Below, one piece after another: positions 1,646 to 18,460 of a stretch of DNA of 21,188 nucleotides. A program made the translations under genes and the position numbers. This stretch comes from an uncultured archaeon (GTDB taxonomy: Archaea; Asgardarchaeota; Lokiarchaeia; Sigyniarchaeales; SOKP01), in assembly GCA_964388035.1 (NCBI GenBank), contig CAYLZE010000083.1:1-21188 (forward strand), given 5' to 3'. The notes below the pieces were generated by a model, which worked only from the letters and a program-made list of their open reading frames with translations, was not told the DNA's origin and made no database searches. Position 1 is the stretch's first letter. Every line of letters begins with the position of its first letter.

Positions 1646-1681
1646 ATAGGAATTTCCACATAAATTTTTCATATCGTTCAA

Positions 1682-1698
1682 TTTTTTTTTAATTTTTT
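1682..1698 (+). terminator. Oligo-T tract, putative archaeal-type terminator of the acyl-CoA synthetase gene
   Basis: T9-AA-T6 run about 35 nt after the stop, in a convergent intergenic region. Confidence 0.4.
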
Positions 1699-1742
1699 CA
1701 TGTCATAAAAAGCAAGTTTTAAAAATCTCTCTTATTTATTCT

Positions 1743-3152
1743 TTAGTTCATGTGTTGCTTTTCCTCTTTAAAATTAATGTCGTCCAATTTACCCTTTAAT
1801 GGTTTGACTAAAACGGTATTTATTTGTTTTTCAAACATTTTCCTCGCTTTTTTTGATTTTAAAAGAAGAATAAGCATCCATCTTGTTATCCTGGACTTAT
1901 AATCTTTATTTGGAAAATCAAACATTTTCCTTCGCTTAAAGAAGATGAAATCTTTTTGAAATACAGCTCCGGGTAATCCATAAAGCATGTCCCGGAATAT
2001 TTTATAGCCGCCTTCTTTCAGAAACGTGGGAGGCGCAACATAACGAGTTTCAGAAAACTTAACTGCTTTTCTCGCCATGTTTAAAATTAAGGAATCTATT
2101 GTCTCTGAGTCACCCGATTCATCCGTCACGATATCCACTAAATTAGCATATCCCAATTCGGCAATCGCAGATACCCATTGACTAATATTTTCATTTTGAC
2201 TTAGTTCTCCAGAAATTAAAACACATAATTGGGTTCCTTCTGTGGAAGGTATGTGACCGCGGTAAAAGCATCTATCAAAATATAATTTCCATCGGGAGGA
2301 GAGAAAGCGGTCAACTAATCTTCCTGCATATACTAAAATATCCGTATTTTTTACGTAATTTTCAAAAAAATCTGTAAATTCATCATTATACACGCATTTA
2401 TTATTAAGTCCACATTTTAGACATCCAAGGCAAGCTCCTTTAATATTTATATCATTCAGATTAAAGATTTTTGCACCATTTTCGAAACAATGATTAAAGT
2501 GAAATGCCATTTTCGCCTCATTTGATTCTTGATCAATATAATCCGTTAGGATAATGATTCTTTTATCAAGATTATCAATCTTATCTACCTCCTTTACTTG
2601 ACCGGGAATATAATTAAAATCTTTTTTGAGCATTGCGGGATATTTTCGTGAAATGGGACCGTTGCCTTTAATTTCTTCCAGAAAATATTTCATGAAATAA
2701 TATAATTGTTTCCTTTTTTCGAATTCTATTAAATCGAAGGAGTTGGCCGAAAAAAAGCCATAATATTTCATGCCTAAATCTTCACTGATAGCGCGCATGT
2801 AATTATGAGCCACATGGTCATAAAATTTCATGGAAGTAGAAAGAACCGCGGCATATTTACCACTTAATTCTTGTATTTTTTTTTCAAAAAGGATCTCGAT
2901 ATATTTTTTCAATTGGGCGGGAATTAGCGTAGTATAGACGGGAAAGCTCCAAATTATCGCATCTGCACTGGATATCTGATCAAGTAGATGTTGATAAGTT
3001 TTCTCTTGCAGCCTCATGTTCGTTAATAATTGACCCACATTTAACTCGATGAACTTAATCTCGGGAAACATTTGCTTGAGATAATTTATGTATTGCATGG
3101 TAATGCTCAGTTCATTTCCTTTTGGACTACCGTTCAAAACTGCTATTTCCAT
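1743..3152 (-). CDS. Tandem flavodoxin-fold NAD(P)H-dependent oxidoreductase / iron-sulfur flavoprotein (Isf-like)
   Basis: N-terminal flavodoxin-like domain with VLNGSPKG, ADAIIWSFPVY and PAQLKKYIE. The second domain has the compact CLGCLKCGLNNKC motif (CX2CX2CX5C) typical of Isf [4Fe-4S] binding, followed by KLYFDR. Confidence 0.85.
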   Translation of the reverse strand: MEIAVLNGSPKGNELSITMQYINYLKQMFPEIKFIELNVGQLLTNMRLQEKTYQHLLDQISSADAIIWSFPVYTTLIPAQLKKYIEILFEKKIQELSGKYAAVLSTSMKFYDHVAHNYMRAISEDLGMKYYGFFSANSFDLIEFEKRKQLYYFMKYFLEEIKGNGPISRKYPAMLKKDFNYIPGQVKEVDKIDNLDKRIIILTDYIDQESNEAKMAFHFNHCFENGAKIFNLNDINIKGACLGCLKCGLNNKCVYNDEFTDFFENYVKNTDILVYAGRLVDRFLSSRWKLYFDRCFYRGHIPSTEGTQLCVLISGELSQNENISQWVSAIAELGYANLVDIVTDESGDSETIDSLILNMARKAVKFSETRYVAPPTFLKEGGYKIFRDMLYGLPGAVFQKDFIFFKRRKMFDFPNKDYKSRITRWMLILLLKSKKARKMFEKQINTVLVKPLKGKLDDINFKEEKQHMN

Positions 3153-3318
3153 TTTTTTACAGAAGAAGTATTATTATAATTAGGATTCTTATATAAGTCT
3201 TAAAATGGATAAAAAATTACGTTTTCTAATGATTATAAGAGTTGTTTGTTAATATAATTCATTTCACATGAAAAGATAATAATAGGCATATCAACAATAA
3301 TAAAGGTCATGCGAAAAA

Positions 3319-5637
3319 ATGAAAATGAATGATGAAATTTCGACAGAAGCTTATAAAAGAGCGGAAAGCTTTCTGCCTTGGAATGCTCAAAAATTAATAA
3401 AAAACGGGTATCTTAAACCAAATTGGATAGAAAATTCAAGTAAATTTTGGTATTTAATCGAAACGGACGAAAAAAGAGAGTTTTTATGTGTTGATCCGAA
3501 AACAAAGAAAAAAAGTAGAGCGTTTGATCATAATAAATTAACAAAAAACTTGAATCGAGTCACTGGCAAGAAGTACTCATCAACACAATTGCCATTCGAT
3601 ACGATTGAATTTAAAAATGATGGAACTATAATGGAATTCAATATTCGGAAAAATTATTGGTCGTGCGATTTAACTACATATGAATGCACGAAAATTAAAC
3701 GAGAACCAGAAACTCCTTCTAACTGGCTCGTATCACCTGACAGGCAAAAAGCTCTCTTTATCAAAGATTATAATGCGTATGCTATTGATCTCTCCACTGG
3801 AAAAAAGATTCAATTAACTAAGGACGGTGAAAAGGATAATGATTATGGATCGTCTCCAGAATCAAATACTTTTGCAATCACTCTCCGTCGTTTAAACATG
3901 GAAAGCCCTCCAATCGCATCATGGTCTCCCGATTCCAAAAAGATTCTCATTCATAAAATCAATCAAAAAAGTGTTAAAAAATTATATTTGATTCAGTCCG
4001 TAGGATTACGGGGTAGTTCAAGACCCTTATTACATGAATATCATTATCCCCTACCTCAAGATGATGAAAGAGCCTTATGCTCGACATATATTTTAGATTT
4101 AGAAAAAGAAAAAGCTATCTTAACAAGGCATGATCCTTATCCTTTAGATTACTTGTCTCTAATAGAACACAAGTACGCCTGGTGGGGAAAAGAAAGCAAG
4201 ACAACATACATTATATATTTTGAAAGAGGGCATGACGAAGTTACTCTGTGTGAAATAGATGTTTTTACCGGTGATACGAGAACCATCCTAACCGAAAAGA
4301 GCGCATCATTCATGGACCTAAATCCCAATCCCGATAAAAAACCAAATGTTAGCGTTGTAAATCAGGGTAAAGATGTAATTTGGTATTCTGAAAGAGATGG
4401 GTGGGGCCACCTTTATTTATATGACTGCGAAACGGGTGAAATGAAGAACCAGATCACTTCAGGAGAATGGGTAGTTCATGATATCATCCTTATCGATGAA
4501 GAAGAGAAATGGATATATTTTACTGCAGGAGGAAGAGAGCCAGGAATTGACCCGTATTATAGATTGTTATATCGAGTTCATTTTGATGGAGCAAGTCTTC
4601 AATTATTAACTCCCGAACCAGCAGATCATGATATTATTTTTTCTCCCGATGGAAAGTATTTTATTGATAATATTTCCAAAGTAGATGAAATTCCTCATTC
4701 TCTTTTGCGTTCAGCCAACGGGGAACTCATGCTGAACTTGGAAAAAGCCAATATTAATAAGCTCATGGATATGGGATGGAAATTTCCTGAAAGATTCACT
4801 CTGAAAGCTAGAGATAATACAACGGATTTATATGGCGTGATCTTCAAACCAATAAATTTTACCCCAAAACAGCAATACCCCATCATTGATTTTATTTATC
4901 CCGGTCCTCAAAGAATTAATACTCCCAAATCCTTTCCCATGAAATTAAATGCTAGCATTTTGGAATATTGGGACCCGCAAGCTCTTGCAGAATTAGGTTT
5001 TATCGTGATTGTTATGGATGGATTTGGAACTCCCTTGAGGTCAAAAAAGTTCCTCGACTATTCCTATGGCAAAATGGAAGAAGCAGGAGGATTGGAAGAC
5101 CACGTGAAGATAATAAAGGAATTGGCTAAATCTCATTCATTCATGAACTTGGAGAAGGTGGGAATTTACGGTCATTCAGGTGGGGGGTATGCTTCAGCAA
5201 GAGCAATACTAGAATATCCAGACTTTTACAAGGTAGCAGTAAGCTCTGCAGGTAATCATGATCAAAGGGGTTATGTGGCAGGATGGGGAGAGAAATATCA
5301 AGGATTAGTTCAAAATACTGATTATACTCATCAAGCTAATTCAAAGCTTGCGAATAATTTGAAAGGTAAACTATTCTTAGTGTGCGGGGACATGGATGAT
5401 AATGTTCATTTTTCATTGACCTATCAACTGGCAGATGCCTTGATTAAAGCAAATAAAGATTTTGACATGCTCGTTTTGCCAAATCGAAATCATTATTTCT
5501 TGATTGATGAATATTTTATCCGAAAACGCTGGGATTATTTTGTAAGATACCTATTAGACCAAACTCCCTCAAAAAGCTATAAGATTAAACCCCCCAGCAT
5601 GGAATTCATTATAGCATTAGCATCCCAGCAATTTTAA
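3319..5637 (+). CDS. S9B family peptidase (dipeptidyl peptidase IV-like)
   Basis: Beta-propeller region (WSPDSKK, SERDGWGHLYLYD, FSPDGKYF), IYPGPQ, nucleophile elbow GHSGGG, Asp in DMDDNVH, and His in NRNHYF. No signal peptide is evident. Confidence 0.95.
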   Translation: MKMNDEISTEAYKRAESFLPWNAQKLIKNGYLKPNWIENSSKFWYLIETDEKREFLCVDPKTKKKSRAFDHNKLTKNLNRVTGKKYSSTQLPFDTIEFKNDGTIMEFNIRKNYWSCDLTTYECTKIKREPETPSNWLVSPDRQKALFIKDYNAYAIDLSTGKKIQLTKDGEKDNDYGSSPESNTFAITLRRLNMESPPIASWSPDSKKILIHKINQKSVKKLYLIQSVGLRGSSRPLLHEYHYPLPQDDERALCSTYILDLEKEKAILTRHDPYPLDYLSLIEHKYAWWGKESKTTYIIYFERGHDEVTLCEIDVFTGDTRTILTEKSASFMDLNPNPDKKPNVSVVNQGKDVIWYSERDGWGHLYLYDCETGEMKNQITSGEWVVHDIILIDEEEKWIYFTAGGREPGIDPYYRLLYRVHFDGASLQLLTPEPADHDIIFSPDGKYFIDNISKVDEIPHSLLRSANGELMLNLEKANINKLMDMGWKFPERFTLKARDNTTDLYGVIFKPINFTPKQQYPIIDFIYPGPQRINTPKSFPMKLNASILEYWDPQALAELGFIVIVMDGFGTPLRSKKFLDYSYGKMEEAGGLEDHVKIIKELAKSHSFMNLEKVGIYGHSGGGYASARAILEYPDFYKVAVSSAGNHDQRGYVAGWGEKYQGLVQNTDYTHQANSKLANNLKGKLFLVCGDMDDNVHFSLTYQLADALIKANKDFDMLVLPNRNHYFLIDEYFIRKRWDYFVRYLLDQTPSKSYKIKPPSMEFIIALASQQF

Positions 5638-5692
5638 CAAAAAAATATACCATGGGATGATTTGTCCCGCAGTCAGATTTTTATCAAATAAG

Positions 5693-5738
5693 TATAAATA
5701 TAACAATAGGATAATTGGAATATAGAATAATAAGGTGA
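5693..5738 (+). promoter_or_regulatory. Putative TATA box (TATAAATA, 5693-5700) and RBS (AAGGTGA, 5732-5738) of the MBL-fold gene
   Basis: GGTGA ends 7 nt before ATG 5746, and a TATA-like octamer lies about 50 nt upstream of the ATG. Confidence 0.55.
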
Positions 5739-5745
5739 ATAAAAA

Positions 5746-6633
5746 ATGGCTCACATGGATAAAGAGGGCAAATTTAATGCGAATACTTATCTCATAGACT
5801 CAGAGTTCTTTAAATTGCCCAAAACCCTGGCACTCTATGTCATTGAAAGTGGAAATGAACGCATGTTGATTGATACGGGTGATACATTATCTGCAAGAAA
5901 GACGGTGAAAAAATTACAAGAAATGAAACTCTCTCCCATACAAAAGATATTTTTTACGCATGCTCATTGGGATCACATCCAAGCATTTCATCGGCTTGAG
6001 AAATTAATGAAAGAGGCTGATTTGGAAGTTCTAGCCCATGAAAACGCCGTGGAGATATTGAAACATCCCGAGAAAATGAATGAATTTTTTGGGTACGCGG
6101 TTGAACCGATTGAGGCAACAACTACCTTGAAAGAAGGAGATGTAATAAACCTGAACGGATTAGAATTAGAAATCATTGAATTTTTCGGTCATACCCAAGA
6201 TTCCATAGCAATCTATAATAAAAGCCTTAAGCATCTCATCGTAGGAGATGCAATAATCGATAGAATAGATCGCAATACTTATGTTACTGTATTGTTTGGA
6301 CCCAATTTTGATGAACCTTCTTTATTAAAGTCCTATGAAAAATTGAGGCGCATGAAAGATAAAATTGATTCCATTTCCCTTGCTCATTTTGGCACTTACA
6401 CGGCAGAGGATAAGGACTACATTATCGATAATGTGGAAGAAATGTATTTTAAAGCCAAGAATGCCTTAATAAAATGGTATAATGAGGGTCTTTCCGTAGA
6501 AGAAATCACGGAAAAGTACCAAGAAAATATTATTCCTAACTCAACACTCTTTAATAAAGAATCCCTTCAAGGATTACAGTGGAATATCGGACAAAATATC
6601 GATTCGCTTAAAGCTGCAGGATTAATAAACTAA
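5746..6633 (+). CDS. Metallo-beta-lactamase-fold hydrolase (glyoxalase II-like)
   Basis: LIDTG, THAHWDH (HxHxDH), GHT, GDA and AHFG metal-ligand motifs; good RBS. Confidence 0.92.
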   Translation: MAHMDKEGKFNANTYLIDSEFFKLPKTLALYVIESGNERMLIDTGDTLSARKTVKKLQEMKLSPIQKIFFTHAHWDHIQAFHRLEKLMKEADLEVLAHENAVEILKHPEKMNEFFGYAVEPIEATTTLKEGDVINLNGLELEIIEFFGHTQDSIAIYNKSLKHLIVGDAIIDRIDRNTYVTVLFGPNFDEPSLLKSYEKLRRMKDKIDSISLAHFGTYTAEDKDYIIDNVEEMYFKAKNALIKWYNEGLSVEEITEKYQENIIPNSTLFNKESLQGLQWNIGQNIDSLKAAGLIN

Positions 6634-6639
6634 ATTGAA

Positions 6640-6674
6640 TTTTTTTTAATTTATCACTATATTTTATTTTTTTT
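6640..6674 (+). terminator. Oligo-T tracts after the MBL-fold gene, putative terminator
   Basis: Several T4-T8 runs immediately after the stop codon. Confidence 0.4.
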
Positions 6675-6792
6675 CCTTGTATTTTCGATAAGGACAATTC
6701 CATATATCGGCATGTTAAGCCAAAATCTAAGTAATTTTTCCTTTTTTGCTGATTTATTAAGTTCAGTTATCGAATTTTCACATGCATTACAA

Positions 6793-7191
6793 TTAATCAA
6801 GTTTACTACCGCACGAAGTACAATATTTTTGTGTGCTTGGATTGATAATCGGTGTTCCGCATTTCGGGCAGATTTTCTGAACTGTTTTGTTCAGCATGGG
6901 CTCGGGTGTGGACCAGTATGTTTGAGAAGTGTTCGATGAAGATTTGCGTTTAGTGGATGAGCTTTCACCAAAATCTCCTTCAACAAGACCACAGCAACAT
7001 AGGCAACCAAATATCGCTCCAAAGAGAGCTAAAATACCCATAAAACTTCCTTCTAATAAGCGACTCCAATAGTCCGAAATTGGTGGGTAGGTAGAGCCAA
7101 CAAGTCCGTAAGGGATTAACCACATCAAAAATGTAACAAAGAAAAAACAACAAATAGAAGTAATAGTGATAACAATAAAAAATGTTTTCAT
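6793..7191 (-). CDS. Small membrane protein with two predicted TM helices and a C-terminal zinc ribbon
   Basis: Two hydrophobic segments, a Ser/Thr-rich linker, then CPKCG-x10-CTSCG. AGGA and GGTGA RBS-like sequences lie upstream on the minus strand. Confidence 0.8.
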   Translation of the reverse strand: MKTFFIVITITSICCFFFVTFLMWLIPYGLVGSTYPPISDYWSRLLEGSFMGILALFGAIFGCLCCCGLVEGDFGESSSTKRKSSSNTSQTYWSTPEPMLNKTVQKICPKCGTPIINPSTQKYCTSCGSKLD

Positions 7192-7649
7192 GTTTCCTAT
7201 TAGATTTCACCTTTTTTTAATCAATAGTATTGTTTTATATATACAAAATTACTCTTTTTCTAAATTCAATTTTAGATTTCATAAAGTAAATCAATGAATT
7301 TATTTATAAAGGAAATCCTAACATGGATATTATTATCGATATTTTTGATAAAGAGTTCATGTATTAAATAAAATCGTATATAACGTTTCTTTCATTTACA
7401 TTGGACCATATTATATGATATTCCCATACTTTTTTGCTTTGCTGGAAAACATTGACAAGTTTTAAATAATTTTAAAAAAAGAGGGCGAATATAAGTGAAA
7501 GTTCTCTCTATAAATTTATAACATGATATGGAGTATGAAAATGTCAAGATACTTAAAGCTGCAATATTAAAGTAAAGAATTTTTTGCATTTCACTTTAAA
7601 CATGACGACTGTTTACCCTATTTCATTTTGTTTGGGTTTTAATGTAGTT

Positions 7650-7673
7650 TAAGGATTATATCACGAATCCTTA
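7650..7673. promoter_or_regulatory. Perfect inverted repeat TAAGGATT-N8-AATCCTTA, candidate transcription-factor site
   Basis: 8-bp perfect arms in the divergent intergenic region, about 40 nt upstream of a TATA-like AAAAGATATATA preceding the aspartase-family gene. Confidence 0.35.
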
Positions 7674-7766
7674 GGAATCACTGATTAAAAGTTCAAAAAT
7701 ATTTGAGTAATAAAAGATATATAGGTGGTAACAGAACAATGAATTATTACTTACCCCCGTTTAATC

Positions 7767-9131
7767 ATGGAAAAAAAAAGAATGAGAATTGAGTCTGATT
7801 TACTCGGTACAATTGAAGTTCCTATTGAGAAATATTATGGTGCTCAAACGCAAAGGGCACTATTAAATTTCCCCGTTGGAAATCAAAAAACTCTGGGAGA
7901 TTATCTTCCCTTAATCAAGGGGTTAACTTCATGTAAAAAGGCAGCAGCTATTGTAAATGCAAAACACGGATATATCACCGAAAAACAAAAAGAAGCAATA
8001 ATTAAAGCAGTAGATCAGATATTCGTAAAAAATATGAGCGATCAATTTCCCATCCATTACCTATATGGTGGAGGTGGCACCAGTGGGAATATGAACGTTA
8101 ATGAAGTAATAGCCAACATTGCTGAAGAATTATTAGGGGGAAAACGTGGTGAATATGAGCTAATTCATCCCAATACTCATGTAAATTTAAACCAATCCAC
8201 GAATGATGTATATCCTACTGCTTGTCATATAGCAATTATAAATGAATGGCCGAAATTAAGAAGTGCGTTAAACGATCTCGTGAGTTCCATCAATCAACGT
8301 TCTAAAGAATTAGAAAATCAGAAGAGGGTTGCTCGCACCTGTTTACAAGAGGCCGTCGACATTACCTTCAAGGATTTTTTAGGGGGATATGTGGGATTTT
8401 TAAATCGAGCCATAAAAAGATTGGAGCATTCTGTCCATGAATTGTATTCGATTAATCTTGGTGGAACCATTGTTGGGAGAAAAATCGACGTTCCTCAAGC
8501 TTATTTAAAAGATATTATTCCGGCATTTAGAGATGTAACTGGGGATGCAAACTATATTCCTGCCGAGAATTACTTTGATGCGGCTCAAAATGTCGATACT
8601 ATGGGAGAAGTAGCCCATTCCTTAGCTATTCTAGCTCATGGGTTAATTAAGATTGGTAAAGATTTCCGTTTAATGAATTCGGGTCCCGAGGCAGGTTTCA
8701 ATGAAATTATTTTACCGCCTGTTCAACCGGGGTCCTCTATAATGCCCGGAAAAATCAATCCAGTGATTCCCGAATTTTTGATACAATGTTGCTTCATGGT
8801 AATCGGGAATACATCGGCATGCGATTTAACATTTAACCATGGTGAATTGGATCTGAATATCTGGGAAACCCTCTTAGTGGTCAACATTTTAGATTCAATG
8901 GAATTATTAATGAATGGATTAAGGACGTTTGAAGAAAAATGCATACAAGGGTTCAAAGTTAATATTGAAATTAATAATAGAAATGCCGAGTCAATCATTC
9001 CTTTATTAACGAAATTGATGCATCAGCATGGATATAACAAGATTAACGAAATTTGCAAAAAAGCAGTGGGTGATATTGAAAAACTTAAACGTTTGTTAAA
9101 GGAAGAAGATTTATCAGAATCTAAAAAGTAG
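7767..9131 (+). CDS. aspA: Aspartate ammonia-lyase family protein (fumarase/aspartase superfamily)
   Basis: YYGAQTQRA, GGGGTSGNMNVNEVIAN, NQSTNDVYPTA, SGPEAGFNEI and the signature GSSIMPGKINPVIPE. The RTH motif reads RTC, so the exact substrate is uncertain. Confidence 0.82.
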   Translation: MEKKRMRIESDLLGTIEVPIEKYYGAQTQRALLNFPVGNQKTLGDYLPLIKGLTSCKKAAAIVNAKHGYITEKQKEAIIKAVDQIFVKNMSDQFPIHYLYGGGGTSGNMNVNEVIANIAEELLGGKRGEYELIHPNTHVNLNQSTNDVYPTACHIAIINEWPKLRSALNDLVSSINQRSKELENQKRVARTCLQEAVDITFKDFLGGYVGFLNRAIKRLEHSVHELYSINLGGTIVGRKIDVPQAYLKDIIPAFRDVTGDANYIPAENYFDAAQNVDTMGEVAHSLAILAHGLIKIGKDFRLMNSGPEAGFNEIILPPVQPGSSIMPGKINPVIPEFLIQCCFMVIGNTSACDLTFNHGELDLNIWETLLVVNILDSMELLMNGLRTFEEKCIQGFKVNIEINNRNAESIIPLLTKLMHQHGYNKINEICKKAVGDIEKLKRLLKEEDLSESKK

Positions 9132-9528
9132 AACTTTACTCCGTTATCTCATTAGAAGATAGATATAAATTAAAATTGATCATGTATCTCGTAAGCCGAG
9201 ATAAATATTTCGTATCGTACATGAGAATTCATTTTTTCCTCTTACATTAATTGCTTACCTATAACAAATTAGATCTGCTTCTAAAGAAGAGTAGTTTGGT
9301 TGAAGTATATAATTATATATATATCTGGTATAAATATCCAAAAGTTTATAAGGGTAAAAATTCCAAAATTTTTTAATATCGGACTTTTTCTTCTTTTATA
9401 AGAAGTATATTTTGTTAAATTTATTATTATAAAGTTTAAAATAAAAAATTAAGGTACATTCGGGAATGTGGTACCATTTTCATTCTTCTGATGTATTTAT
9501 TTATAAAGATGAGTGAGATTGATAAATC

Positions 9529-11802
9529 TTGTTTTTTCAATTACCTGTCATTAGTAAATTAAGAGAAATTGTATTTTCAAATTACAGTGTCCATCCTTTA
9601 TTTTCTATTTGTTTGTTTATTATTATTCCGATAACATTAATATGTGCCTTCACCTGTTTGGCAATCATCCTTCGCAAAATTAGAACGCTGAAAAGAAGTA
9701 ATGGAAAAATGAGGGAGATTAGCAACTATATTCAAGAAGGAGCAAGAATCTATTTAACCCAACAAGGCAAAGTGCTTCTCATTATTTTAATTATCTTATT
9801 TATTCCCGTAGGATTTACAGGAATAGAATTTTCGGAAAACCCCCTTTTGGGGTTTGTTTATACGGGGCTAATTTTCTTTATTGGCGCTCTTAGTTCCCTA
9901 ATTGCTGGCTATATTGGAATGACCACGGCAACTAGGACTAATATTTTAGTAGTGGAAGCTTCGATGCGCGATCCTAATGAAGGATTCAAGTTAGCTTATT
10001 ACGGAGGCATGATCACGGGTATTCTTAATATCTCCTTGTTTATACTTGGTATTTGGATCATTCTCTTGATTTTTAACGGAAACGTGTATCTTATTGTAGG
10101 TTATAGCTTTGGAGCGAGTGTTGCTTCATTACTTGCACAAGTAGGTGGAGGTATCTACACGAAATCCGCGGATATGGGTGCAGACTTGGTAGGAAAGTAT
10201 GAGATGAGCATTAAAGAAGATGATCCGAGCAATCCCGCCATAATAGCAGATTTAGTGGGCGATAATGTGGGGGATTGTGCTGGAAGGGGTGCAGATCTAT
10301 TTGAAAGTGCTTCCTCAGATGTTATCGGAGGTATGGTATTGGGCATAATATTATTTATAATTACGAGCGATCCGATTTTTATCATTGTGAATTTCACGTT
10401 AATTGCTTTAGGAATGGTTTCTCTCTTCTTTACAACTCTCTTTTTGAAAATTGACTTTAAAAAACCTTCAAAAAGTATTTGGAATGTTTTTATTTCCGCT
10501 ACACTCATAAATGTATTAATTTTGTTCATATTAAACTTGGCACTTTTTGGACTCATAGGGATATATTTGTTTTTTGCAAGTTTCGTGGGTCTAATTATCA
10601 TGTTCATCACCATTTTATTTACTATCTATTATACTGACGTTCATTATAAACATACCCGCAAGGTAGCAGATGCAAGTGAAGAAGGGCCCTCTATTAATGT
10701 ATTAGCGGGTATTTCAGCAGGATTGTTCTCTACATTTTGGCCCATTCTGATCTTTGGAGTTGCAGTTATTTTAGCTTTCGTGTTTGGACATATGTTTGCT
10801 ATCACTTATTATACAGAATTCTTGCATTCCAATTTAGTTAACATCTTTGGTGAACCGGTGGATTGGAACTTATATCTTATTTGCTTCGGCATATGGGGGG
10901 TTTCAATGGCGTCCTCTTCCAGTGACACGATTATTAGCACGGTTTTAAGCTTTGATACCTTCGGTCCAATCATCGACAATGCTCATGGCTTGACAGAAAT
11001 GGGCGGGGATGAAGCCACCGAGGAATTAAAATATAATTTAGACCAATTAGATGCCGTGGGAAATACTACTAAGGCAATTGCAAAAGGATTTGCCCTTGTA
11101 TGCGGTGGATTAAGTAGCATCGTTTTATTTCTAACTTTTTTAGTAAATGCTCAATCTCTTGCTAGTGAACTTCCTACTTTTATTCCACAAGCGACTCTTC
11201 TAAATATTTTTGATAACTTGAATCTATTTAATCCCCTCATTATTTTTGGACTTTTAATAGGATTCACGATTCCTTTTTTAATTGCAGCAATGATTTTGCA
11301 TGCCGTTGAAGACGGAGCGAAAGACATGGTACAAGAAGTAAGACGCCAATATAGGGAAATTCCCGGCTTGAAAGAGGGTTTAAGCAAACCTGATTATGGG
11401 AAATGTATTGACATTTCGGCTAAAAATGCTCTTAAAAAAATAATTCAGCCCACGGCTACCGTTGTAATAGTTACACTTTCGATAGGAATTCTATTAGGGC
11501 CTTTAGTTTGTGCGGGATATTTAATCGGAAATCTTTCCGGGTGTCTAATTGTTGGCTTCTTTTTCTCGATCGGCGGAGCATCCTTTGATAATGCAAAGAA
11601 AGCAATTGAAGCAGGACTTCACGGAGGAAAAGGTAGTTTTGCGCACAAATCCGCAATTATTGGGGATACCTTTGGAGATCCCTTAAAAGATTCTGCCGGT
11701 CCCAGCATGAATATCATCATTACTACGGTAAACACGATGGCTCTCACCTTTTTACCGCTTTTCATGATCACGGGCTTTTTATGGAATTTATTTCCGATTT
11801 AA
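9529..11802 (+). CDS. hppA: Membrane-integral ion-translocating pyrophosphatase, K+-independent type, with a divergent ion gate
   Basis: Polytopic membrane protein with GGGIYTKSADMGADLVGK, EDDPSNPAIIADLVGDNVGD, DTFGPIIDNA, LDAVGNTTKA (Lys = K+-independent determinant), EVRRQ, DNAKK and GDTFGDPLKD. The TTG start is uncertain. Confidence 0.95.
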   Translation: MFFQLPVISKLREIVFSNYSVHPLFSICLFIIIPITLICAFTCLAIILRKIRTLKRSNGKMREISNYIQEGARIYLTQQGKVLLIILIILFIPVGFTGIEFSENPLLGFVYTGLIFFIGALSSLIAGYIGMTTATRTNILVVEASMRDPNEGFKLAYYGGMITGILNISLFILGIWIILLIFNGNVYLIVGYSFGASVASLLAQVGGGIYTKSADMGADLVGKYEMSIKEDDPSNPAIIADLVGDNVGDCAGRGADLFESASSDVIGGMVLGIILFIITSDPIFIIVNFTLIALGMVSLFFTTLFLKIDFKKPSKSIWNVFISATLINVLILFILNLALFGLIGIYLFFASFVGLIIMFITILFTIYYTDVHYKHTRKVADASEEGPSINVLAGISAGLFSTFWPILIFGVAVILAFVFGHMFAITYYTEFLHSNLVNIFGEPVDWNLYLICFGIWGVSMASSSSDTIISTVLSFDTFGPIIDNAHGLTEMGGDEATEELKYNLDQLDAVGNTTKAIAKGFALVCGGLSSIVLFLTFLVNAQSLASELPTFIPQATLLNIFDNLNLFNPLIIFGLLIGFTIPFLIAAMILHAVEDGAKDMVQEVRRQYREIPGLKEGLSKPDYGKCIDISAKNALKKIIQPTATVVIVTLSIGILLGPLVCAGYLIGNLSGCLIVGFFFSIGGASFDNAKKAIEAGLHGGKGSFAHKSAIIGDTFGDPLKDSAGPSMNIIITTVNTMALTFLPLFMITGFLWNLFPI

Positions 11803-12114
11803 AGTATCATCATGGATTAAAAAATCATTTTTTTCCTTCTCTTTCTGCACTATTTGGATCAATAATTCAACATTTTTAAAATTTAATTCAGGATTTACAT
11901 CGAATACTTAAACTTAGATTTTAAAATCATCCAAAACTGGGGAACGTTATCTAAAATCACGCTTTTACACTATAGATAACTATCTCTTGAAGAAAAAAAC
12001 CTCTTACTGTGAAGTTGGAATCGCCTTATCTTAAACAAAGAAGTTATAAAAGATTTAACAACTAATACAATCATATAGGTTAGTTTTTTTAAAAAATCGT
12101 ATAGTAGGATCTTT

Positions 12115-13626
12115 ATGAGAATTTTATATATAGATATTGACACGACAAGAGCGGATCATTTGGGTTGCTACGGCTATCAACGGGATACTACTCCAAATAT
12201 CGATAAAATTGCTAAAGAAGGAACCATCTTTACGGAATGTTATGCATCGGATGCTCCTTGTCTCCCTTCAAGGGCCTCCTTATTCATGGGACAATTTGGA
12301 ATACATACCGGCGTGGTTGGACATGGGGGAACCGCGGCTGATTTGGCCATCAGTGGGAAATATAGAGGATTCATGGATGCTAAATATTATAATTTCTGGA
12401 TTAATCTTCTTAGAAAAGCTCGTTATTACACGGTTTCAGTATCCCCTTTTGCGGAACGTCATTCTGCTTATTGGTTTTGCTCGGGATGGAATGAAATGTA
12501 TAATCCCGGTAAAAAAGGTCTTGAAACTGCTGATATGGTATATCCTTACGTGTATAATTGGTTAAATAAAAAGGGAAAAGAAGACAATTGGTTTTTACAT
12601 GTCAACACGTGGGACCCCCACACCCCCTATCGATCGCCTTTAGAATATGAAAATCCTTTTGAAAAGGATCCCTCACCGGGATGGATGACTCAAGAGATCA
12701 TTGATCAACACCGACAAAGCTATGGACCTCATTCTGCAAGAGATATTTGGGGAATCGGTTCGCCAAGAGAAACTAAATTTTTCATGAAAATTTTTCCCAG
12801 GGCGAGAATAGCAGAGATTGAAACAATCGAAGATTATAAAAGATGGGTTAATGAGTATGATGTAGGGATCCATTATGCCGATAACATGGTGGGGAAAATC
12901 GTAGAAAATCTTAAAGATTTAGAAGTTTATGATGATACCCTCATCATGATCAGTTCGGATCACGGAGAAAGCCAAGGTGAGCTAAATATATATGGGGATC
13001 ATTGTACCGCAGATCATATCATAAATAGGATACCCATGGTAATTAAATGGCCTGGTAAGGAATGGAACAAGAAATACGAATCTTTAATTTATCAATCGGA
13101 TATTGCTGCTACTTTAATTGAAAGTTGTGGACTAAAAGTTCCTAAAATATGGGATGGAACAAGTTATTACAAGCAAATTCAGAACAAAGAAGATTTCGGG
13201 AGGAATTATTTAGTTATAAGTCAAAACACGTGGAGTTGCCAGAGGACGGTTAGATTTAAGAATTGGAGCTTTATTCGAACATATCACACGGGACTAAAGG
13301 ATTTTCCAAAATACATGTTATATGATTATGATAAAGATTTTCACATGGTTAACAATCTCGCGGATATTAAAACTGATGTTAAAAATGAAGGCGTGAAACT
13401 TTTAGATGAATGGCACGCAGAAATGATGAAAAGCTCCCAATCAGATATAGATCCTATGTGGACTGTAATTTACGAAGGTGGGCCTCATCATACCCGATAT
13501 GACTTGCAACAATATCTTAAACGACTGAAAGATTCTGGAAGGGAACATTTAATCCCCAAAATACTAGAAAGAAATGAAGCTTATCTGACTCCGGATGAAA
13601 CCAAGGGGGGCTCTTATAATGTATGA
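12115..13626 (+). CDS. Sulfatase family protein (formylglycine-dependent, Cys-type)
   Basis: DIDTTRADHLGCYG, signature CLPSRASLFMG (CxPxR), WDPHTPY and SSDHGE. No signal peptide. Confidence 0.93.
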   Translation: MRILYIDIDTTRADHLGCYGYQRDTTPNIDKIAKEGTIFTECYASDAPCLPSRASLFMGQFGIHTGVVGHGGTAADLAISGKYRGFMDAKYYNFWINLLRKARYYTVSVSPFAERHSAYWFCSGWNEMYNPGKKGLETADMVYPYVYNWLNKKGKEDNWFLHVNTWDPHTPYRSPLEYENPFEKDPSPGWMTQEIIDQHRQSYGPHSARDIWGIGSPRETKFFMKIFPRARIAEIETIEDYKRWVNEYDVGIHYADNMVGKIVENLKDLEVYDDTLIMISSDHGESQGELNIYGDHCTADHIINRIPMVIKWPGKEWNKKYESLIYQSDIAATLIESCGLKVPKIWDGTSYYKQIQNKEDFGRNYLVISQNTWSCQRTVRFKNWSFIRTYHTGLKDFPKYMLYDYDKDFHMVNNLADIKTDVKNEGVKLLDEWHAEMMKSSQSDIDPMWTVIYEGGPHHTRYDLQQYLKRLKDSGREHLIPKILERNEAYLTPDETKGGSYNV

Positions 13627-13805
13627 AGAAAAAAGGCAAATGTTCTATTTAATTACTTCTATTAATAAAAGGTTTAAAATTGAACATTCTGTACTCTTCT
13701 AAGGTTTCATATCTTACAAATTTGCATGAAAGGTTAATTCGAATTATTTAATTTTTTATATATCTTCTATTAATTAAAATACATACCTTAAAAGTTAGAG
13801 CAATC

Positions 13806-15083
13806 ATGAGTAAACCAATTTCTAAAAAAATTATACTTTCAATAATGCTGATGAAATTTGCTGGTGAAATAGCTTGGGCAGTAGAGAATCAATATTTCAA
13901 TGTATTCATGTATAACGTGATTGCCCCTGTCCCCATTTACGTCTCATGGATGGTTGCAATAACAACTATAGTTGGAACCTTATCAGCAATCATTTTAGGC
14001 TCATATAGCGACGTTAAAGGAAAAAGAAAATCGATCATTGTTCTTGGTTTTATTTTCTTTGGAATCACCACTGCCATTTTCCCAATTGCTGCTTTTTTAC
14101 ATCCCATATTATTGGCTGTGTTTATAGCTATCCTTTTTGATTGCATCATGACATTCTTTGGATCGATGGCTCTTAATGCAGGGTTTAATTCATATATAAC
14201 GGATATCACCACAGTTAAGACCAGAGCAAAAGTGATGAGTGTTGCACAAATAATGTTTTTACTTGCTTTATTGCTCACTTATGGCGCATCGGGATTTTTA
14301 ATCACTGCTGTGGGATATTTTGCTTATTTTTATGTGATTGGGGGCATAGTATTAGTTATTGGGCTTGCAGGAAGCTTGCTCGTTCAAGACGATCCGGATT
14401 TAATGCCTTTAAAAACTACTACTTGGAAGCATATTAAAAGCACCTTCCAAAAAGACAAACTTAGTAAATACAAGAATTTTCTGGTGCTCTTAGTAGCCAT
14501 GGCAATCTGGCAAACTGGCCTCAATATCTTTTTTCCTTTCTTACTCGTCTACCTTCAACATTATATCGGTATCACAATTGTCACTTCGTCCATTATTGTT
14601 TTTATAGCAATACTCGTCTCTGTTATAATGGGCTATCCCATTGGAATAATAATTAATAAAATGGGAAGGAAAAAAATGGCAATCATCTCCACGTTGCTTA
14701 TAGGGATCTTTCTAATATTATTTTCGATGGTGACCGAATTGATTCTTCTGCTAATTTTTGGTACTATATGGTTTTTATTTTATACGGCATGGACGATTTC
14801 TACCTACACTTGGGTTAAGGATCTTTATCCTGATGAGAGCAGGGGGCAATTTAGCGGTTATTTCAACCTTTTCAACGCTACAATTCCCATGGTAATCGGA
14901 TCGTTTATAGGAGGCTGGTTGGCATCCGCATATGGAATCCCTACGGTTCAAGAGGGCATTGAGGGAACGATTCCCACACCACTCGTCTTTTTGGTGGGTG
15001 GTATCGTGATCTTAGCATCAATAGTCATACATTTCTTTATAAAGGAAGTGGAAATTAAAGAAGCTTTAATCAAGGACGTTTAA
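13806..15083 (+). CDS. MFS transporter
   Basis: About 12 hydrophobic helices; motif A-like GSYSDVKGKRK and NKMGRKK; DLYPDESRGQFSG. Confidence 0.92.
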   Translation: MSKPISKKIILSIMLMKFAGEIAWAVENQYFNVFMYNVIAPVPIYVSWMVAITTIVGTLSAIILGSYSDVKGKRKSIIVLGFIFFGITTAIFPIAAFLHPILLAVFIAILFDCIMTFFGSMALNAGFNSYITDITTVKTRAKVMSVAQIMFLLALLLTYGASGFLITAVGYFAYFYVIGGIVLVIGLAGSLLVQDDPDLMPLKTTTWKHIKSTFQKDKLSKYKNFLVLLVAMAIWQTGLNIFFPFLLVYLQHYIGITIVTSSIIVFIAILVSVIMGYPIGIIINKMGRKKMAIISTLLIGIFLILFSMVTELILLLIFGTIWFLFYTAWTISTYTWVKDLYPDESRGQFSGYFNLFNATIPMVIGSFIGGWLASAYGIPTVQEGIEGTIPTPLVFLVGGIVILASIVIHFFIKEVEIKEALIKDV

Positions 15084-15096
15084 TTAATGAAAAACC

Positions 15097-15112
15097 TTTT
15101 TATTTTTTTTTT
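15097..15112 (+). terminator. Oligo-T tract after the MFS gene, in a convergent terminator region
   Basis: T5-A-T10 just after the stop at 15083. A-runs near 15224-15241 could serve the opposite strand. Confidence 0.45.
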
Positions 15113-15255
15113 AACATTCGGTTCAGTTAAACTCTTGAAAAAATGAATAAATTTAGGAATAGCGGTAAAAAATTTTTTTTTAAAAGCTCTTCACTCAATT
15201 CTCTTATTTTTCACGTAATAAATAAAAAGTAGTAAAAAAAAGAAATTGTCTATCA

Positions 15256-16728
15256 TTAACTTGATGATTCTTCTTGAAGCCCTATATTAATCAACTTAGC
15301 CTTTATTTCTAACATTTCTTTAGGAGTTAGTTTCCATTGAAAGTAAAAATATATCGCAGCAAAAACAATGAAAATCATGGGAACAAGTGCAATCTGCGCG
15401 CGGATTCCGAACGTGGCTAAGGGGCTCTGATTAATACCCGCAGCAACATTATAATCAGTAAAGACATCATGAATTAACCACAGGGATAGGGCCATTACAA
15501 TTTGACCAAATTGAGAGACGAACATGAGAATTGCATTATATTTTGAATCGACTCTGCGTCCCTCACGGACAGATCCTTCATCAATCATGTCCGATAGAAT
15601 TGGGACAAGAACAACACCAATTAAGCCCGCTGCAGCTCCAAGAAAAGCTCCCACGATCATGGCACCTATTAAACTAGAAACAAACAGAAAGGGGATTAAG
15701 CAGATTGGCCAAATGATAAGTGCAAATTTAAAAATTTTCGCCTGACCGTATTTTTTAATTAAATATAAATAAAGGGGGATCAATACAATTCCGGCTACAG
15801 TGAAAGGAACTGCAAGTAGAGTCACGATGGAGGCAGCAATTCCAGGTTCATATTTTAGGACCACAGTAACAAAATACGTAAGAGACGGAGCAAATACATT
15901 TCCAAACACAGAATTGGCGATTGTAAAAATAAGAAATGCCCGAAAATTCGTATTTTTAAGGCCACGTCCCAATACCTTGAAAAATTCCTTAAAGTCACCC
16001 CAACCTCCCAAAGATTCTACATTATCCACTATCTTTCGATTCAATACTTTTTCACTATCTCTTGCTCCCGGAAAAGATAAAATAATTAAAACAATTCCTA
16101 TTATCACGAACAAACCAATTGTATAGATGTAAGCGGTTGCATTTTCAATCCCACCAAAAAGAGAAATGAAAATGCCTCCCGTAACCGCCCCGAATACTCC
16201 ACCTAGAGTTCCGATAACGGTTTGGAATGCACCAATTTTCCTCCTATCAACATCAGAGCGAAATTTATCGGACCGAATGGCAGCAATTGAGACCGTCCAA
16301 AAAGCAAGTAATCCATCATAAATGAATAAAATAGCAAGAAAGTAAATAAATGTCAGCCAAGCATTCCATATATTGACACTGGGAGGTGTAAAGACGAGAA
16401 AAGTCAGGATACCAAAAGGTATGGCCGTCATTAAAACAAATGGAAATCGTCTTCCCCACCGTTTAGTAAAAGAATAGGTTTTATCCGTATATATTCCGGC
16501 AATGAGTTCATTCAAGGAGTCCCATACGGTGAATATGGTCAGCGCAATGAAGTAAAGGAAGGTAGGCAAGCCTATAACGTTTTCATAATAAAAAGGCATC
16601 CATACCCACAACACGTTGGTCATTATTCCCAATGCTGCGCTTGCAAGGCTAAAAGAAAGTAAAATCTTAGTGGGGTAGATTTGCTGGGTTACATATTTTT
16701 CTGCATCTTCAACAACCATTTTAATCAC
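15256..16728 (-). CDS. MFS transporter, glycoside-pentoside-hexuronide (GPH/MelB-like) cation symporter family
   Basis: WDSLNELIAGIYTDKT...RWGRRFPF, SDMIDE...GRR and QSPLATFGIR; 12 TM-like segments. The real start is probably ATG 16719, with GTGA as the RBS. Confidence 0.9.
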   Translation of the reverse strand: MIKMVVEDAEKYVTQQIYPTKILLSFSLASAALGIMTNVLWVWMPFYYENVIGLPTFLYFIALTIFTVWDSLNELIAGIYTDKTYSFTKRWGRRFPFVLMTAIPFGILTFLVFTPPSVNIWNAWLTFIYFLAILFIYDGLLAFWTVSIAAIRSDKFRSDVDRRKIGAFQTVIGTLGGVFGAVTGGIFISLFGGIENATAYIYTIGLFVIIGIVLIILSFPGARDSEKVLNRKIVDNVESLGGWGDFKEFFKVLGRGLKNTNFRAFLIFTIANSVFGNVFAPSLTYFVTVVLKYEPGIAASIVTLLAVPFTVAGIVLIPLYLYLIKKYGQAKIFKFALIIWPICLIPFLFVSSLIGAMIVGAFLGAAAGLIGVVLVPILSDMIDEGSVREGRRVDSKYNAILMFVSQFGQIVMALSLWLIHDVFTDYNVAAGINQSPLATFGIRAQIALVPMIFIVFAAIYFYFQWKLTPKEMLEIKAKLINIGLQEESSS

Positions 16729-16792
16729 GAATAATTTATTAGTTGATTAGGTTAATTTAGGCAAAATCCTATTTAAAATGTACGCTTACAAA

Positions 16793-18460
16793 TTACTTTA
16801 AATTTTTTTTTAGAAACCTCATCATTTTGAAAAAATCACGCGCTCGTCTACTTCTGTCCTCAAGACCTATATTATGCCCGGCTTGGTTGTATTCTATATA
16901 TTTATAGGGATGATTTTTTTCTTTTAATTTTTCAACGAATAACCGGATTGGCTCAATTGGACATCTTGAATCTTGATCCCCCGCTACAATCATAACAGGT
17001 GCTTTAATATTATCCACATGAGTGATGGGGGAGCGATCGCGATATAAATCTTCCTTTTCATCAGGAGTTCCTCCAAAGAGCAAGTCAAGTCTATTGGCAA
17101 TGAGGTGTTTGTAGTCTTCAATCCAATCAATCACGGGAACTAAGGATAATCCCGCTTTAAATACATCTGGTTTTTTGACTAACGCATAGAGTGTCATGTA
17201 TCCCCCATAAGATGCTCCTACAATGCCTATTTGATCATTATGAATTTCAGGCTGAGCTTGTAACCACTTGGCGGCATGAACAATATCATCTAAATCTCCT
17301 CCTCCTAAATCACCTATATTCAGTTTTTGAAATTCCGAGCCATACCCCGTAGAACCCCGATAATTGACAGCAAACACACCAAATCCACTATTTGCGATAG
17401 ACTGCAAGTAGACTCCTTGAGACCATTCATCAAAAACTTGATCTGTAGGGCCCCCATGTACAAATACCAATCCCTGAGAGGGCTCATTTGCTTCTTTTTT
17501 CGCGGGGATATACCATCCATGAATTTTTCTATTATCGTAAGAAGGATACCAGATGGATTGCGGTTGGCAAAGAATTTTTAATATCTCGATATTATAATGC
17601 GGAGGAGTTACTAATTGTATCGCATTAGTCCCTACTTGATATTTATAGATTGACCCCGGAGAAATCATGGAAGAATGGTAACCTACCAAACATTTTCCGT
17701 CTTTGCTTAGCTTTATCTCTTCAATTTGCCCTTTTGGAAAGGGAATGGCATCATTAATCTCATTGTTTAATGAATGCTCTCTCACAAAAGAGCGTCCATG
17801 TTTACTTACAATATAATAGATGCCTTGCTCATTGGGCATCCAACAGCAATGAGAAAAATTTTGTGCCTCTTCTTGTTCCTGTACATTCAAAAAGATTTCT
17901 TCAGAATTATTTACCTTTTTAATGAGAATTTGCTTGTTGCCTTTAGCGTTAGTTTGAAAAGCTATCCACTTATCGGTAGGAGACCAAACTGCGGAATTTT
18001 CTTCAGAATTTTCCTCAAAATTATAATAGATGACATCTTCCGGATCCTTGCGATTTATCAATTGGATTTCGGCACCTTTTTCAGTCGATGCTGTAACAGC
18101 AATCCATTTCCCATCATGTGAATAATCCAAGTCAATGAACCCATAAGTGTTCTCTTTAAGGACAAAGGACTCTTTTGATTCCAAATTTATTGTTTCTATG
18201 CCCATGTATGGACCTTCCGCAAAGGATCGACTTACTTCCTTTCCATTGGGATGCCATCCAAGTGCCCAAGATACGAAGGCTTTAGAAGTTATTTGAATGG
18301 GTTGTTGAGCCTCCTTTTCTAAAGGGAGGAGATACAAATGGTGTCTTTCATCTCCATGAGATTCTTGAGGAAATAGTACAATGTCTTCTTGAGGTGAAAT
18401 TAGGAATCGGGTGATTTGTTCCTTAAAAGTAAGTTGTTTAGCTTTATTTTCTTCTGTCAA
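16793..18460 (-). CDS. S9C family peptidase (acylaminoacyl-peptidase / prolyl oligopeptidase-like); true start probably further upstream
   Basis: VHGGP, NYRGSTGYG, GASYGGY, DQDSRC and AGH catalytic motifs, plus propeller repeats (WHPNG, YSHDG, WSPTD). The frame stays open and protein-like upstream to 18586. Confidence 0.92.
   Translation of the reverse strand: MTEENKAKQLTFKEQITRFLISPQEDIVLFPQESHGDERHHLYLLPLEKEAQQPIQITSKAFVSWALGWHPNGKEVSRSFAEGPYMGIETINLESKESFVLKENTYGFIDLDYSHDGKWIAVTASTEKGAEIQLINRKDPEDVIYYNFEENSEENSAVWSPTDKWIAFQTNAKGNKQILIKKVNNSEEIFLNVQEQEEAQNFSHCCWMPNEQGIYYIVSKHGRSFVREHSLNNEINDAIPFPKGQIEEIKLSKDGKCLVGYHSSMISPGSIYKYQVGTNAIQLVTPPHYNIEILKILCQPQSIWYPSYDNRKIHGWYIPAKKEANEPSQGLVFVHGGPTDQVFDEWSQGVYLQSIANSGFGVFAVNYRGSTGYGSEFQKLNIGDLGGGDLDDIVHAAKWLQAQPEIHNDQIGIVGASYGGYMTLYALVKKPDVFKAGLSLVPVIDWIEDYKHLIANRLDLLFGGTPDEKEDLYRDRSPITHVDNIKAPVMIVAGDQDSRCPIEPIRLFVEKLKEKNHPYKYIEYNQAGHNIGLEDRSRRARDFFKMMRFLKKNLK

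Follow-up and report, generated by a model that had tools for sequence, protein, structure and literature searches.

Can a membrane-integral pyrophosphatase (mPPase) still pump ions once the lysine of its ion gate is gone? The question is raised by a gene at positions 9529-11802 (+) of contig CAYLZE010000083.1, a stretch of 21,188 nucleotides (hereafter the window) from a metagenome-assembled genome of an uncultured Loki-type Asgard archaeon, in whose predicted product the lysine of position 16.50 is replaced by Thr732. K16.50 is 94.5% conserved among mPPases and R5.50 is 86.4% conserved (PMC6882861); this protein has neither. K16.50 pairs with D6.50/E6.53-57, and its movement has been proposed to be central to pumping (PMC5150537). 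It moves on substrate binding, blocking the Na+ site in H+ pumps and swinging away in Na+ pumps, and a 'unifying principle' has been drawn from comparing this swing with the Arg in F- and P-type ATPases (PMC5150537, PMC10897367). The gate Glu has a pKa that depends on the same residue, Lys707 (PMC9408878).

We find that the replacement marks a whole clade of Asgard mPPases with an intact catalytic centre and a rebuilt gate. Our confidence is about evenly balanced on the proposal that the gene encodes a functional mPPase from a neofunctionalised paralogue family present in some Asgard (Loki-type) archaea.

Gene, fold and position of Thr732

The open reading frame is complete (757 aa) and runs from a TTG start to a TAA stop; the TTG aligns with an ATG start in 14 orthologues and with a TTG in 2. 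The product matches the Pfam profile PF03030 (H_PPase) at 623.4 bits (cut-off 29.7) over profile positions 2-644 of 645, and its best sequence match in the Protein Data Bank is 8b37 (phmmer 8e-104; a single stretch, residues 54-756). We obtained an AlphaFold2 model from a 91-sequence alignment (predicted local distance difference test, pLDDT, 90.6; predicted template modelling score, pTM, 0.91), and it has the 16-helix mPPase fold with an inner ring of helices 5, 6, 11, 12, 15 and 16. The best structural superposition found by Foldseek is VrPPase 4a01 (template modelling (TM) score 0.84, root-mean-square deviation 2.6 Å); the other scores are 0.80 for TmPPase and 0.82/0.91 for 8b37. The gene is predicted to encode a full-length membrane-integral pyrophosphatase, of what we refer to as the Asgard 'T16.50' subfamily.

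Residue numbering takes D11.50 = Asp476 and Table 3 of PMC6882861 as its reference points. HMMER aligns the segment GPSMNIIIT to GPSLNPLIK of PaPPase (8b37), GPSLDILIK of TmPPase (4av3) and GPSLNILIK of VrPPase, and because these alignments are gap-free, Thr732 falls at K16.50 (K691, K707 and K742, respectively). The preliminary description of this locus, made from its letters, had read the residue correctly: Thr732 is encoded by ACT (11722-11724), two substitutions from AAA or AAG, and the motifs it quoted (TKSADMGAD, DLVGDNVGD, DNA(HG), LDAVGN, DNAKK, GDTFGDPLKD and GPSMNIIIT) are all in the translation. The stretches 11541-11819 and 11589-11900 are matched with zero differences by contigs of two salt-marsh metagenome runs, one of which is possibly the source sample, and one contig spans 9479-11053, also with zero differences.

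Conservation, gate and origin of the clade

When 5.8 billion proteins were searched, 84 clusters matched the product at 48-80% identity, and below them identity fell sharply to <=41%. The named members are exclusively Asgard (Promethearchaeota, Lokiarchaeota and Hodarchaeota), and we found no description of this clade in the searchable literature. The alignment and trees comprise 248 sequences, the 84 clade clusters and 164 others, the latter being biased towards relatives of the query, so that frequencies among them are not family-wide. The clade is monophyletic with a support of 100 in both FastTree and IQ-TREE (LG+C20), and its stem of 0.53 substitutions per site is the longest internal branch. 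Among 154 species-level genomes of the same order, 19 carry an orthologue (10 of 24 genera); their frames are open and nearly all are full length, with two cut by contig ends. Orthologue pairs at unsaturated synonymous divergence (dS 0.18-1.2) have ratios of non-synonymous to synonymous substitution (dN/dS) of 0.09-0.12. In a genome of the same genus the orthologue is 80% identical, and the same sulfatase gene lies downstream of it.

Thr is found at 16.50 in 78 of the 84 clusters and in 19/19 genomic orthologues, which between them use the codons ACT, ACC, ACA and ACG, a constancy well beyond chance. The suggestion in the preliminary description that the protein belongs to a distinct mPPase subfamily under purifying selection is thus upheld by a monophyletic clade with a dN/dS of ~0.1. 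The same description had named orthologues retaining Lys as the sign of a decaying copy; all 19 have Thr, and this gene is not such a copy.

Around Thr732, the remainder of the TM16 gate segment (11707-11736) has changed as well, to M16.45 (82/84), N16.46 (81/84), T16.51 (83/84) and T16.54 (81/84), where sister lineages have L, H and V/L at 16.45, 16.46 and 16.51. In TM11, Ser464-Ser465-Asp466 (11.38-11.40; 10918-10926) stands in place of G-M/L-L. Here D11.40, encoded in this gene at 10924-10926, as previously noted, by the codon GAC, occurs in 83/84 clusters and S11.39 in 78/84, against L11.40 in 135/164 and M11.39 in 111/164 of the non-clade sequences. AlphaFold2 puts Ser464-Asp466 within a helix spanning residues 446-491. 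With Asp466 a buried carboxylate has been added, at one to two turns below D11.50. The gate gains another carboxylate through Ser263-Asp264 (6.57-6.58; 10315-10320; S in 82/84, D in 81/84, with A and N in the sisters), and inner-ring helix 15 has Cys672 at gate depth (15.46; 11542-11544; C in 80/84 versus G in 124/164 non-clade sequences). The canonical gate residues D6.50 (Asp256), E6.53 (Glu259) and S6.54 (Ser260) at 10294-10308 are kept in 84/84, 80/84 and 82/84 clusters. The picture of a more acidic, lysine-free gate drawn for this one protein therefore extends clade-wide through D6.58, D11.40 and T16.50.

Two inner-ring residues depart from the canonical pattern in a way that the clade shares with its relatives. 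Gln204 occupies 5.50 (10138-10140), canonically Arg, and its partner Arg253 occupies 6.47 (10285-10287); both are invariant in the clade (84/84) and in all sister lineages, whereas solved mPPase structures have R5.50 with M or L at 6.47. It seems that the funnel Arg has moved from helix 5 to helix 6. A large group of mPPases with K12.46 has this combination of Q5.50 and R6.47, usually with H16.46 (62 Q and 60 R among the 164 non-clade sequences); the group is apparently uncharacterised. The motif GNTTKAIA of helix 12 provides K12.46 (Lys515) and A12.49 (Ala518) (11071-11082), with K in 84/84 clusters and A or S at 12.49 in 72/84 and 12/84.

The catalytic centre is intact, as had been claimed, and this holds for the clade as a whole: 20 catalytic and funnel positions are invariant in 84/84 clusters. 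They include K5.58, D5.61 and D5.65 of TM5 (10162-10185), D6.35, D6.39, D6.43, D11.50, D11.57, N12.43, K12.50, the D/K/K of TM15, and D16.31, D16.35, K16.38 and D16.39. S5.43 is likewise found in all 84. Other motif changes that had been pointed out are real in this protein but do not characterize the clade: the Ser of EDDPSN marks a sub-clade (S 24/84, R 56/84), the His of DNAHG occurs in 1/84 (A 77/84), and AVEDGA varies among members. Changes that the preliminary description had not listed are R5.50Q with M6.47R, N6.58D, A6.57S, L/V16.51T, G15.46C and Thr at 16.54.

An unbiased scan, which required a column to be fixed in >=90% of the clade and to differ in >=60% of the non-clade sequences, returned mainly 6.57/6.58, 11.39/11.40, 12.57, 15.46 and 16.45/16.50/16.51. 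Most clade-defining columns lie on inner-ring helices in the register x.39-x.58, level with the ionic and hydrophobic gates (definitions of PMC6882861). Basic residues are gained only at residues 50, 57 and 615, all in cytoplasmic loops, and none in the membrane core. The possibility, raised in the preliminary description, that another Lys or Arg serves at the gate is thereby answered. We also rejected a compensating Lys/Arg elsewhere in the core, since R6.47 is common to sisters that keep K16.50. At the cytoplasmic end of helix 3 the clade does not have the Lys/Arg that is 95% conserved in other mPPases (Leu140 here; 3.67; 9946-9948), and near this residue it has the acidic gains E143 and D148.

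The source genome contains four mPPases in total, this gene and paralogues on contigs C133, C4 and C53. The successive sisters of the clade are P0122, P0123 and then a group with the C133 and C4 paralogues, all of which carry Q5.50, R6.47, E6.53, A6.57, N6.58, L11.40, K12.46, A12.49, H16.46 and K16.50. Because successive sisters are all of this type, the trees show the clade to have arisen by duplication of a predicted K+-independent-type mPPase with Q5.50/R6.47/E6.53/H16.46/K16.50, two copies of which remain in the genome. These are the direct sisters and likely represent the parent type; they share Q5.50, R6.47, E6.53, K12.46 and A12.49 with the clade at 41-45% identity (C133 and C4 paralogues; P0122-P0124) and differ in keeping K16.50, H16.46, A6.57, N6.58 and L11.40. 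We found no biochemical data in the literature for mPPases with Q5.50/R6.47/H16.46/K16.50. On this phylogeny, Q5.50/R6.47 is inherited from the parent type and not clade-derived. The derived changes are K16.50T, H16.46N, L/V16.51T and L16.45M in helix 16, and A6.57S, N6.58D, M/L11.39S, L11.40D, A12.57G, G15.46C, V4.53N and A5.59S elsewhere. The reconstruction shows stem-branch substitutions almost only around the predicted ion gate, with the PPi (pyrophosphate)/Mg2+ centre and the coupling funnel kept.

On the loss of K16.50 the preliminary description went too far, since at least two other mPPase lineages are without this residue. One of them includes the C53 paralogue (L001:1450-3576, -), which has K5.50, M6.47, D6.53, V16.50 and the segment GPSINTLLV. 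In the IQ-TREE phylogeny this K5.50/D6.53/[T,V,C,A]16.50 type is a clade by itself (99% support). It occurs in Anaerolineae, Clostridia, Bathyarchaeia and Thorarchaeota, often with GPS[IL]NT.IT, and five other Asgard genomes with a T16.50-clade gene have it as their sole further mPPase. A profile scan of genome contigs with the K5.50/non-K16.50 alignment returned mostly canonical enzymes, together with 10 K5.50-type sequences; neither Chlorobium nor Cellulomonas was among its matches. The K5.50 lineage resembles the T16.50 clade in having no gate Lys, often Thr16.50, and an intact catalytic centre, and differs in its independent loss, D6.53, M6.47 and no Asp at 6.58/11.40; its Lys5.50 may substitute for K16.50. 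T16.50 is likewise found in a third small lineage (P0133, P0147).

The two aspartates, too, are found elsewhere. D6.58 and D11.40 occur in exactly the same five non-clade representatives (P0095, P0126, P0148, P0157 and P0167), a separate clade with 98-99% support that keeps K16.50, often has D6.57 as well, and carries L, E, N or T at 16.46. From its place in the trees, this lineage is an independent origin of the buried aspartate pair. Because the pair recurs in a lineage that keeps K16.50, the two aspartates appear to be a coupled pair that evolves apart from the Lys-to-Thr change.

Possible ion transport without the gate lysine

Comparison with characterized enzymes gives mixed indications of the transported ion. 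The characterized Na+-transporting mPPases all have A12.46, and K12.46 is so far confined to H+ pumps, where K+-independence involves K12.46 with a coupled change G/A12.49T (PMC10897367). PaPPase of P. aerophilum (8B37) is like this protein in fold, K12.46, E6.53, S6.54, N16.46, S5.43 and all catalytic residues, and differs in R5.50, M6.47, K16.50, T12.49 and the lack of Asp at 6.58/11.40 (~32-35% identity). In TmPPase of Thermotoga maritima (4AV3/5LZQ) the Na+-site ligand positions are D6.50, E6.53, S6.54 and D/N16.46 (PMC5150537), and these are compatibly filled here by D256, E259, S260 and N728; that enzyme differs in being K+-dependent (A12.46) and in having R5.50 and a K16.50 that swings out for Na+ binding. 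VrPPase of Vigna radiata (4A01) also has an acidic residue one helix turn below 6.53 (E6.57 there, D6.58 here). Its proton path runs R5.50-D6.50-K16.50-E6.57, and in our protein both basic members are gone from those positions and a TM11 Asp is added.

Thus, the protein is not a typical K+-independent H+-PPase, since K12.46 is present but T12.49 is absent and the gate set E6.53/S5.43/K16.50 fails at K16.50. It passes the NCBIfam equivalog NF001960 ('sodium-translocating pyrophosphatase') at 630 bits against a cut-off of 546. It is nevertheless not a Na+-PPase, because the Na+-site ligands are present but A12.46 is absent; the 'sodium-translocating' name rests on overall similarity and not on diagnostic residues. 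Database names of clade members conflict with one another ('sodium-translocating', 'K+-stimulated sodium pump' and 'K+-insensitive proton pump'). By its predicted residues, the protein fits no described mPPase subclass.

Lysines can take the place of cations in other pumps. In the gastric H+,K+-ATPase a built-in Lys fills a cation site, where the Na+,K+-ATPase has Ser. By analogy, the reverse change from Lys to Thr in our protein would free a cation site, although P-type ATPases are another protein family. A swap of the same kind within mPPases concerns another site, the cationic centre and not the gate, where the ammonium of K12.46 replaces the K+ cofactor, as expressed in the title 'A lysine substitute for K+' (Belogurov & Lahti 2002, as cited in PMC9408878).

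We propose, with about half of our confidence, that the protein actively pumps a cation at the expense of PPi, through a gate that has no Lys and is more acidic, and that its affinity for the ion, its selectivity or its number of ions per PPi is changed relative to the known H+/Na+ enzymes. PPi binding and hydrolysis would still drive the usual movements of helices 6, 12 and 16. What would be missing is the built-in cationic 'plunger', the Lys ammonium that pairs with D6.50/E6.53 and masks or unmasks the site; because this plunger is gone, the classic site (D6.50, E6.53, S6.54 and N16.46) would be permanently unmasked and more basic. Closer to the exit by approximately one helix turn, the D6.58-D11.40 carboxylate pair and the Ser/Thr hydroxyls may form a second site. 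The charge balancing of the Lys would pass to a bound cation, whether Na+ or protons that the carboxylates share, and since the bound cation must balance this charge, a pump of changed affinity, selectivity or stoichiometry would be expected. As for its cargo, we regard a Na+-capable pump and one that moves H+ only as equally probable, each slightly short of even, and give about half as much weight to another cation or two charges per PPi. Tentatively, and at clearly less than even confidence, we also suggest that the clade could represent a new mPPase functional class: a Lys-free pump with a two-site gate and a cargo unlike that of known mPPases (two monovalent cations for each PPi, Na+ moved by a K+-independent enzyme, or a divalent cation).

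Several observations weigh against the proposal of a pump with a changed gate. For D264, D466 and T732, the placement around a single cavity is deduced from helix register and co-occurrence. The enzyme has K12.46, whereas the Na+ pumps characterized to date all have A12.46 (PMC10897367). Lys has been regained at 16.50 at least twice inside the clade with both aspartates kept, in P0080 and in a subclade (P0013, P0030, P0036, P0046 and P0058) that is sister to the subclade of this gene, so that the Lys-free state is not obligatory for the role of the clade. A metagenome scan with P0013 found only relatives at 67-69%, one of which (L141) has AAA where its relatives have ACA. The earliest-branching clade member, P0084, has T16.50 with E6.58/S11.40. 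Every member of the clade is known from sequences alone, and the gene neighbourhoods of 19 orthologous loci give no functional clue.

Of the alternatives, the least improbable, although we still hold it unlikely, is an ordinary K+-independent H+ pump in which a relay of D6.50, E6.53 and then the D6.58/D11.40 pair replaces the Lys-Glu pair, leaving ion and stoichiometry the same. It would agree with K12.46, so far restricted to H+ pumps (PMC10897367), with the position of D6.58 next to 6.57, the site of the proton-accepting Glu of plant H+-PPases (PMC5150537), and with the constancy of S5.43 (84/84), the proposed partner of the protonated gate Glu. Lys and Thr also interchange inside the clade, and the K5.50 type is presumably the working pump of the five related Asgard genomes in which it is the sole other mPPase, so the Lys would be dispensable for some mPPase function. 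On the other hand, two buried carboxylates and about five hydroxyls have been gained and the sole gate cation lost, a great deal of coordinated and conserved change for a role that stayed the same, and the redundancy of a genome that already has three other mPPases argues for a different one. Without the Lys, moreover, the carboxylate pKa would rise and proton release to the outside would become harder, as may be inferred from PMC9408878. An enzyme that has given up pumping and gets rid of PPi with no energy conserved, be it a PPi hydrolase anchored in the membrane or a leak or sensor under PPi control, seems very unlikely to us: the gate is indeed heavily altered and the strictly canonical part is the catalytic half only, but the gate changes are conserved (78-83/84) and specific (Asp, Ser, Thr) rather than random hydrophobic drift, the whole-gene dN/dS of ~0.1 takes in the transmembrane core, and conserved buried carboxylates would be needless in an uncoupled hydrolase.

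Less probable again is an enzyme that works mainly in reverse or near equilibrium, with two sites in series and two ions per PPi, making or buffering PPi at the cost of the ion gradient in energy-limited sediment archaea. The canonical site and the D6.58/D11.40 site could in principle hold two cations, and both PPi synthesis, as the main mPPase role in some organisms, and a 2:1 stoichiometry, for dual pumps, have been discussed (PMC9408878). This scenario is a pure extrapolation from the residues, however, and PPi-using enzymes are not conserved neighbours of the gene. We give negligible probability to an artefact, in which codon 732 was wrongly sequenced or assembled, and to a dying gene that drifts as a pseudogene since the duplication. 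The source is a metagenome-assembled genome with 7.3% estimated contamination (5.47 Mb, 96.7% complete), but the contigs from two runs are identical, the same-genus orthologue lies beside the same sulfatase gene, the state of this gene recurs in 84 clusters and in 19 genomes, and the open, full-length frame has a dN/dS of ~0.1. We consider error and pseudogene excluded by the two-run contigs, the 19 orthologues, the conservation of the clade and this dN/dS.

Genomic setting and meaning for the family

The mPPase gene looks monocistronic because it is flanked by spacers of 397 bp upstream (an AT-rich intergenic region, 9132-9528, +) and 312 bp at its 3' side. Metatranscriptome matches consist of two 151-nt contigs with one mismatch each, too little for claiming transcription. 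An antisense frame of 152 codons inside the gene (10155-10613, -) is open in 10 of the 19 orthologous loci; most likely it is no separate gene but a shadow frame cast by one that is conserved and codon-biased.

We detected no conserved gene neighbourhood around the mPPase in this window. The regions 23-9131 and 12115-18460 hold a degradative or uptake-looking set, with an acyl-CoA synthetase, a flavodoxin-like flavin mononucleotide (FMN) reductase, two S9 peptidases (one DPP-IV-like), a metallo-beta-lactamase (MBL)-fold hydrolase, an aspartase/fumarase-class lyase, a sulfatase and two major facilitator superfamily (MFS) transporters; the sulfatase is the sole window neighbour in common with the same-genus genome. 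In 7 of the 19 genomes, a gene of ~200 aa with a CxxCxxCC motif (PF03692, YkgJ-like; for example L040:4064-4660 and L041:4064-4687) lies directly 3' of the T16.50-clade mPPase, followed in 6 of those 7 by a small convergent gene of no clear family; both genes are absent from this window, and they say nothing about the transported ion. In three genomes of one Asgard genus, mPPase matches have in-frame TAG stops (G091:C27:7839-10043, G096:C42:65151-67352 and G114:C31:19713-21932), one of them with a TAA as well. G054 (TAA), G026 (TAA) and G027 (TGA) each have a single in-frame stop. These could be broken copies, sequencing problems or read-through.

For Asgard bioenergetics, the related Asgard genomes checked carry only or mainly mPPases without the gate Lys, and in the source genome this applies to two of the four copies. 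The automatic names 'sodium-translocating' and 'K+-insensitive proton pump' are contradictory and unsupported, which matters for metabolic reconstructions of these archaea. Current models give K16.50 a central role in closing the gate and in masking or unmasking the Na+ site, and here are a conserved natural family and at least two further lineages that are without it while their catalytic machinery is untouched. The clade is thus a natural test of whether the gate Lys is needed for ion pumping and of what sets selectivity and stoichiometry. If the clade did prove to be a new functional class, the 'moving Lys' model would not be general for mPPases.

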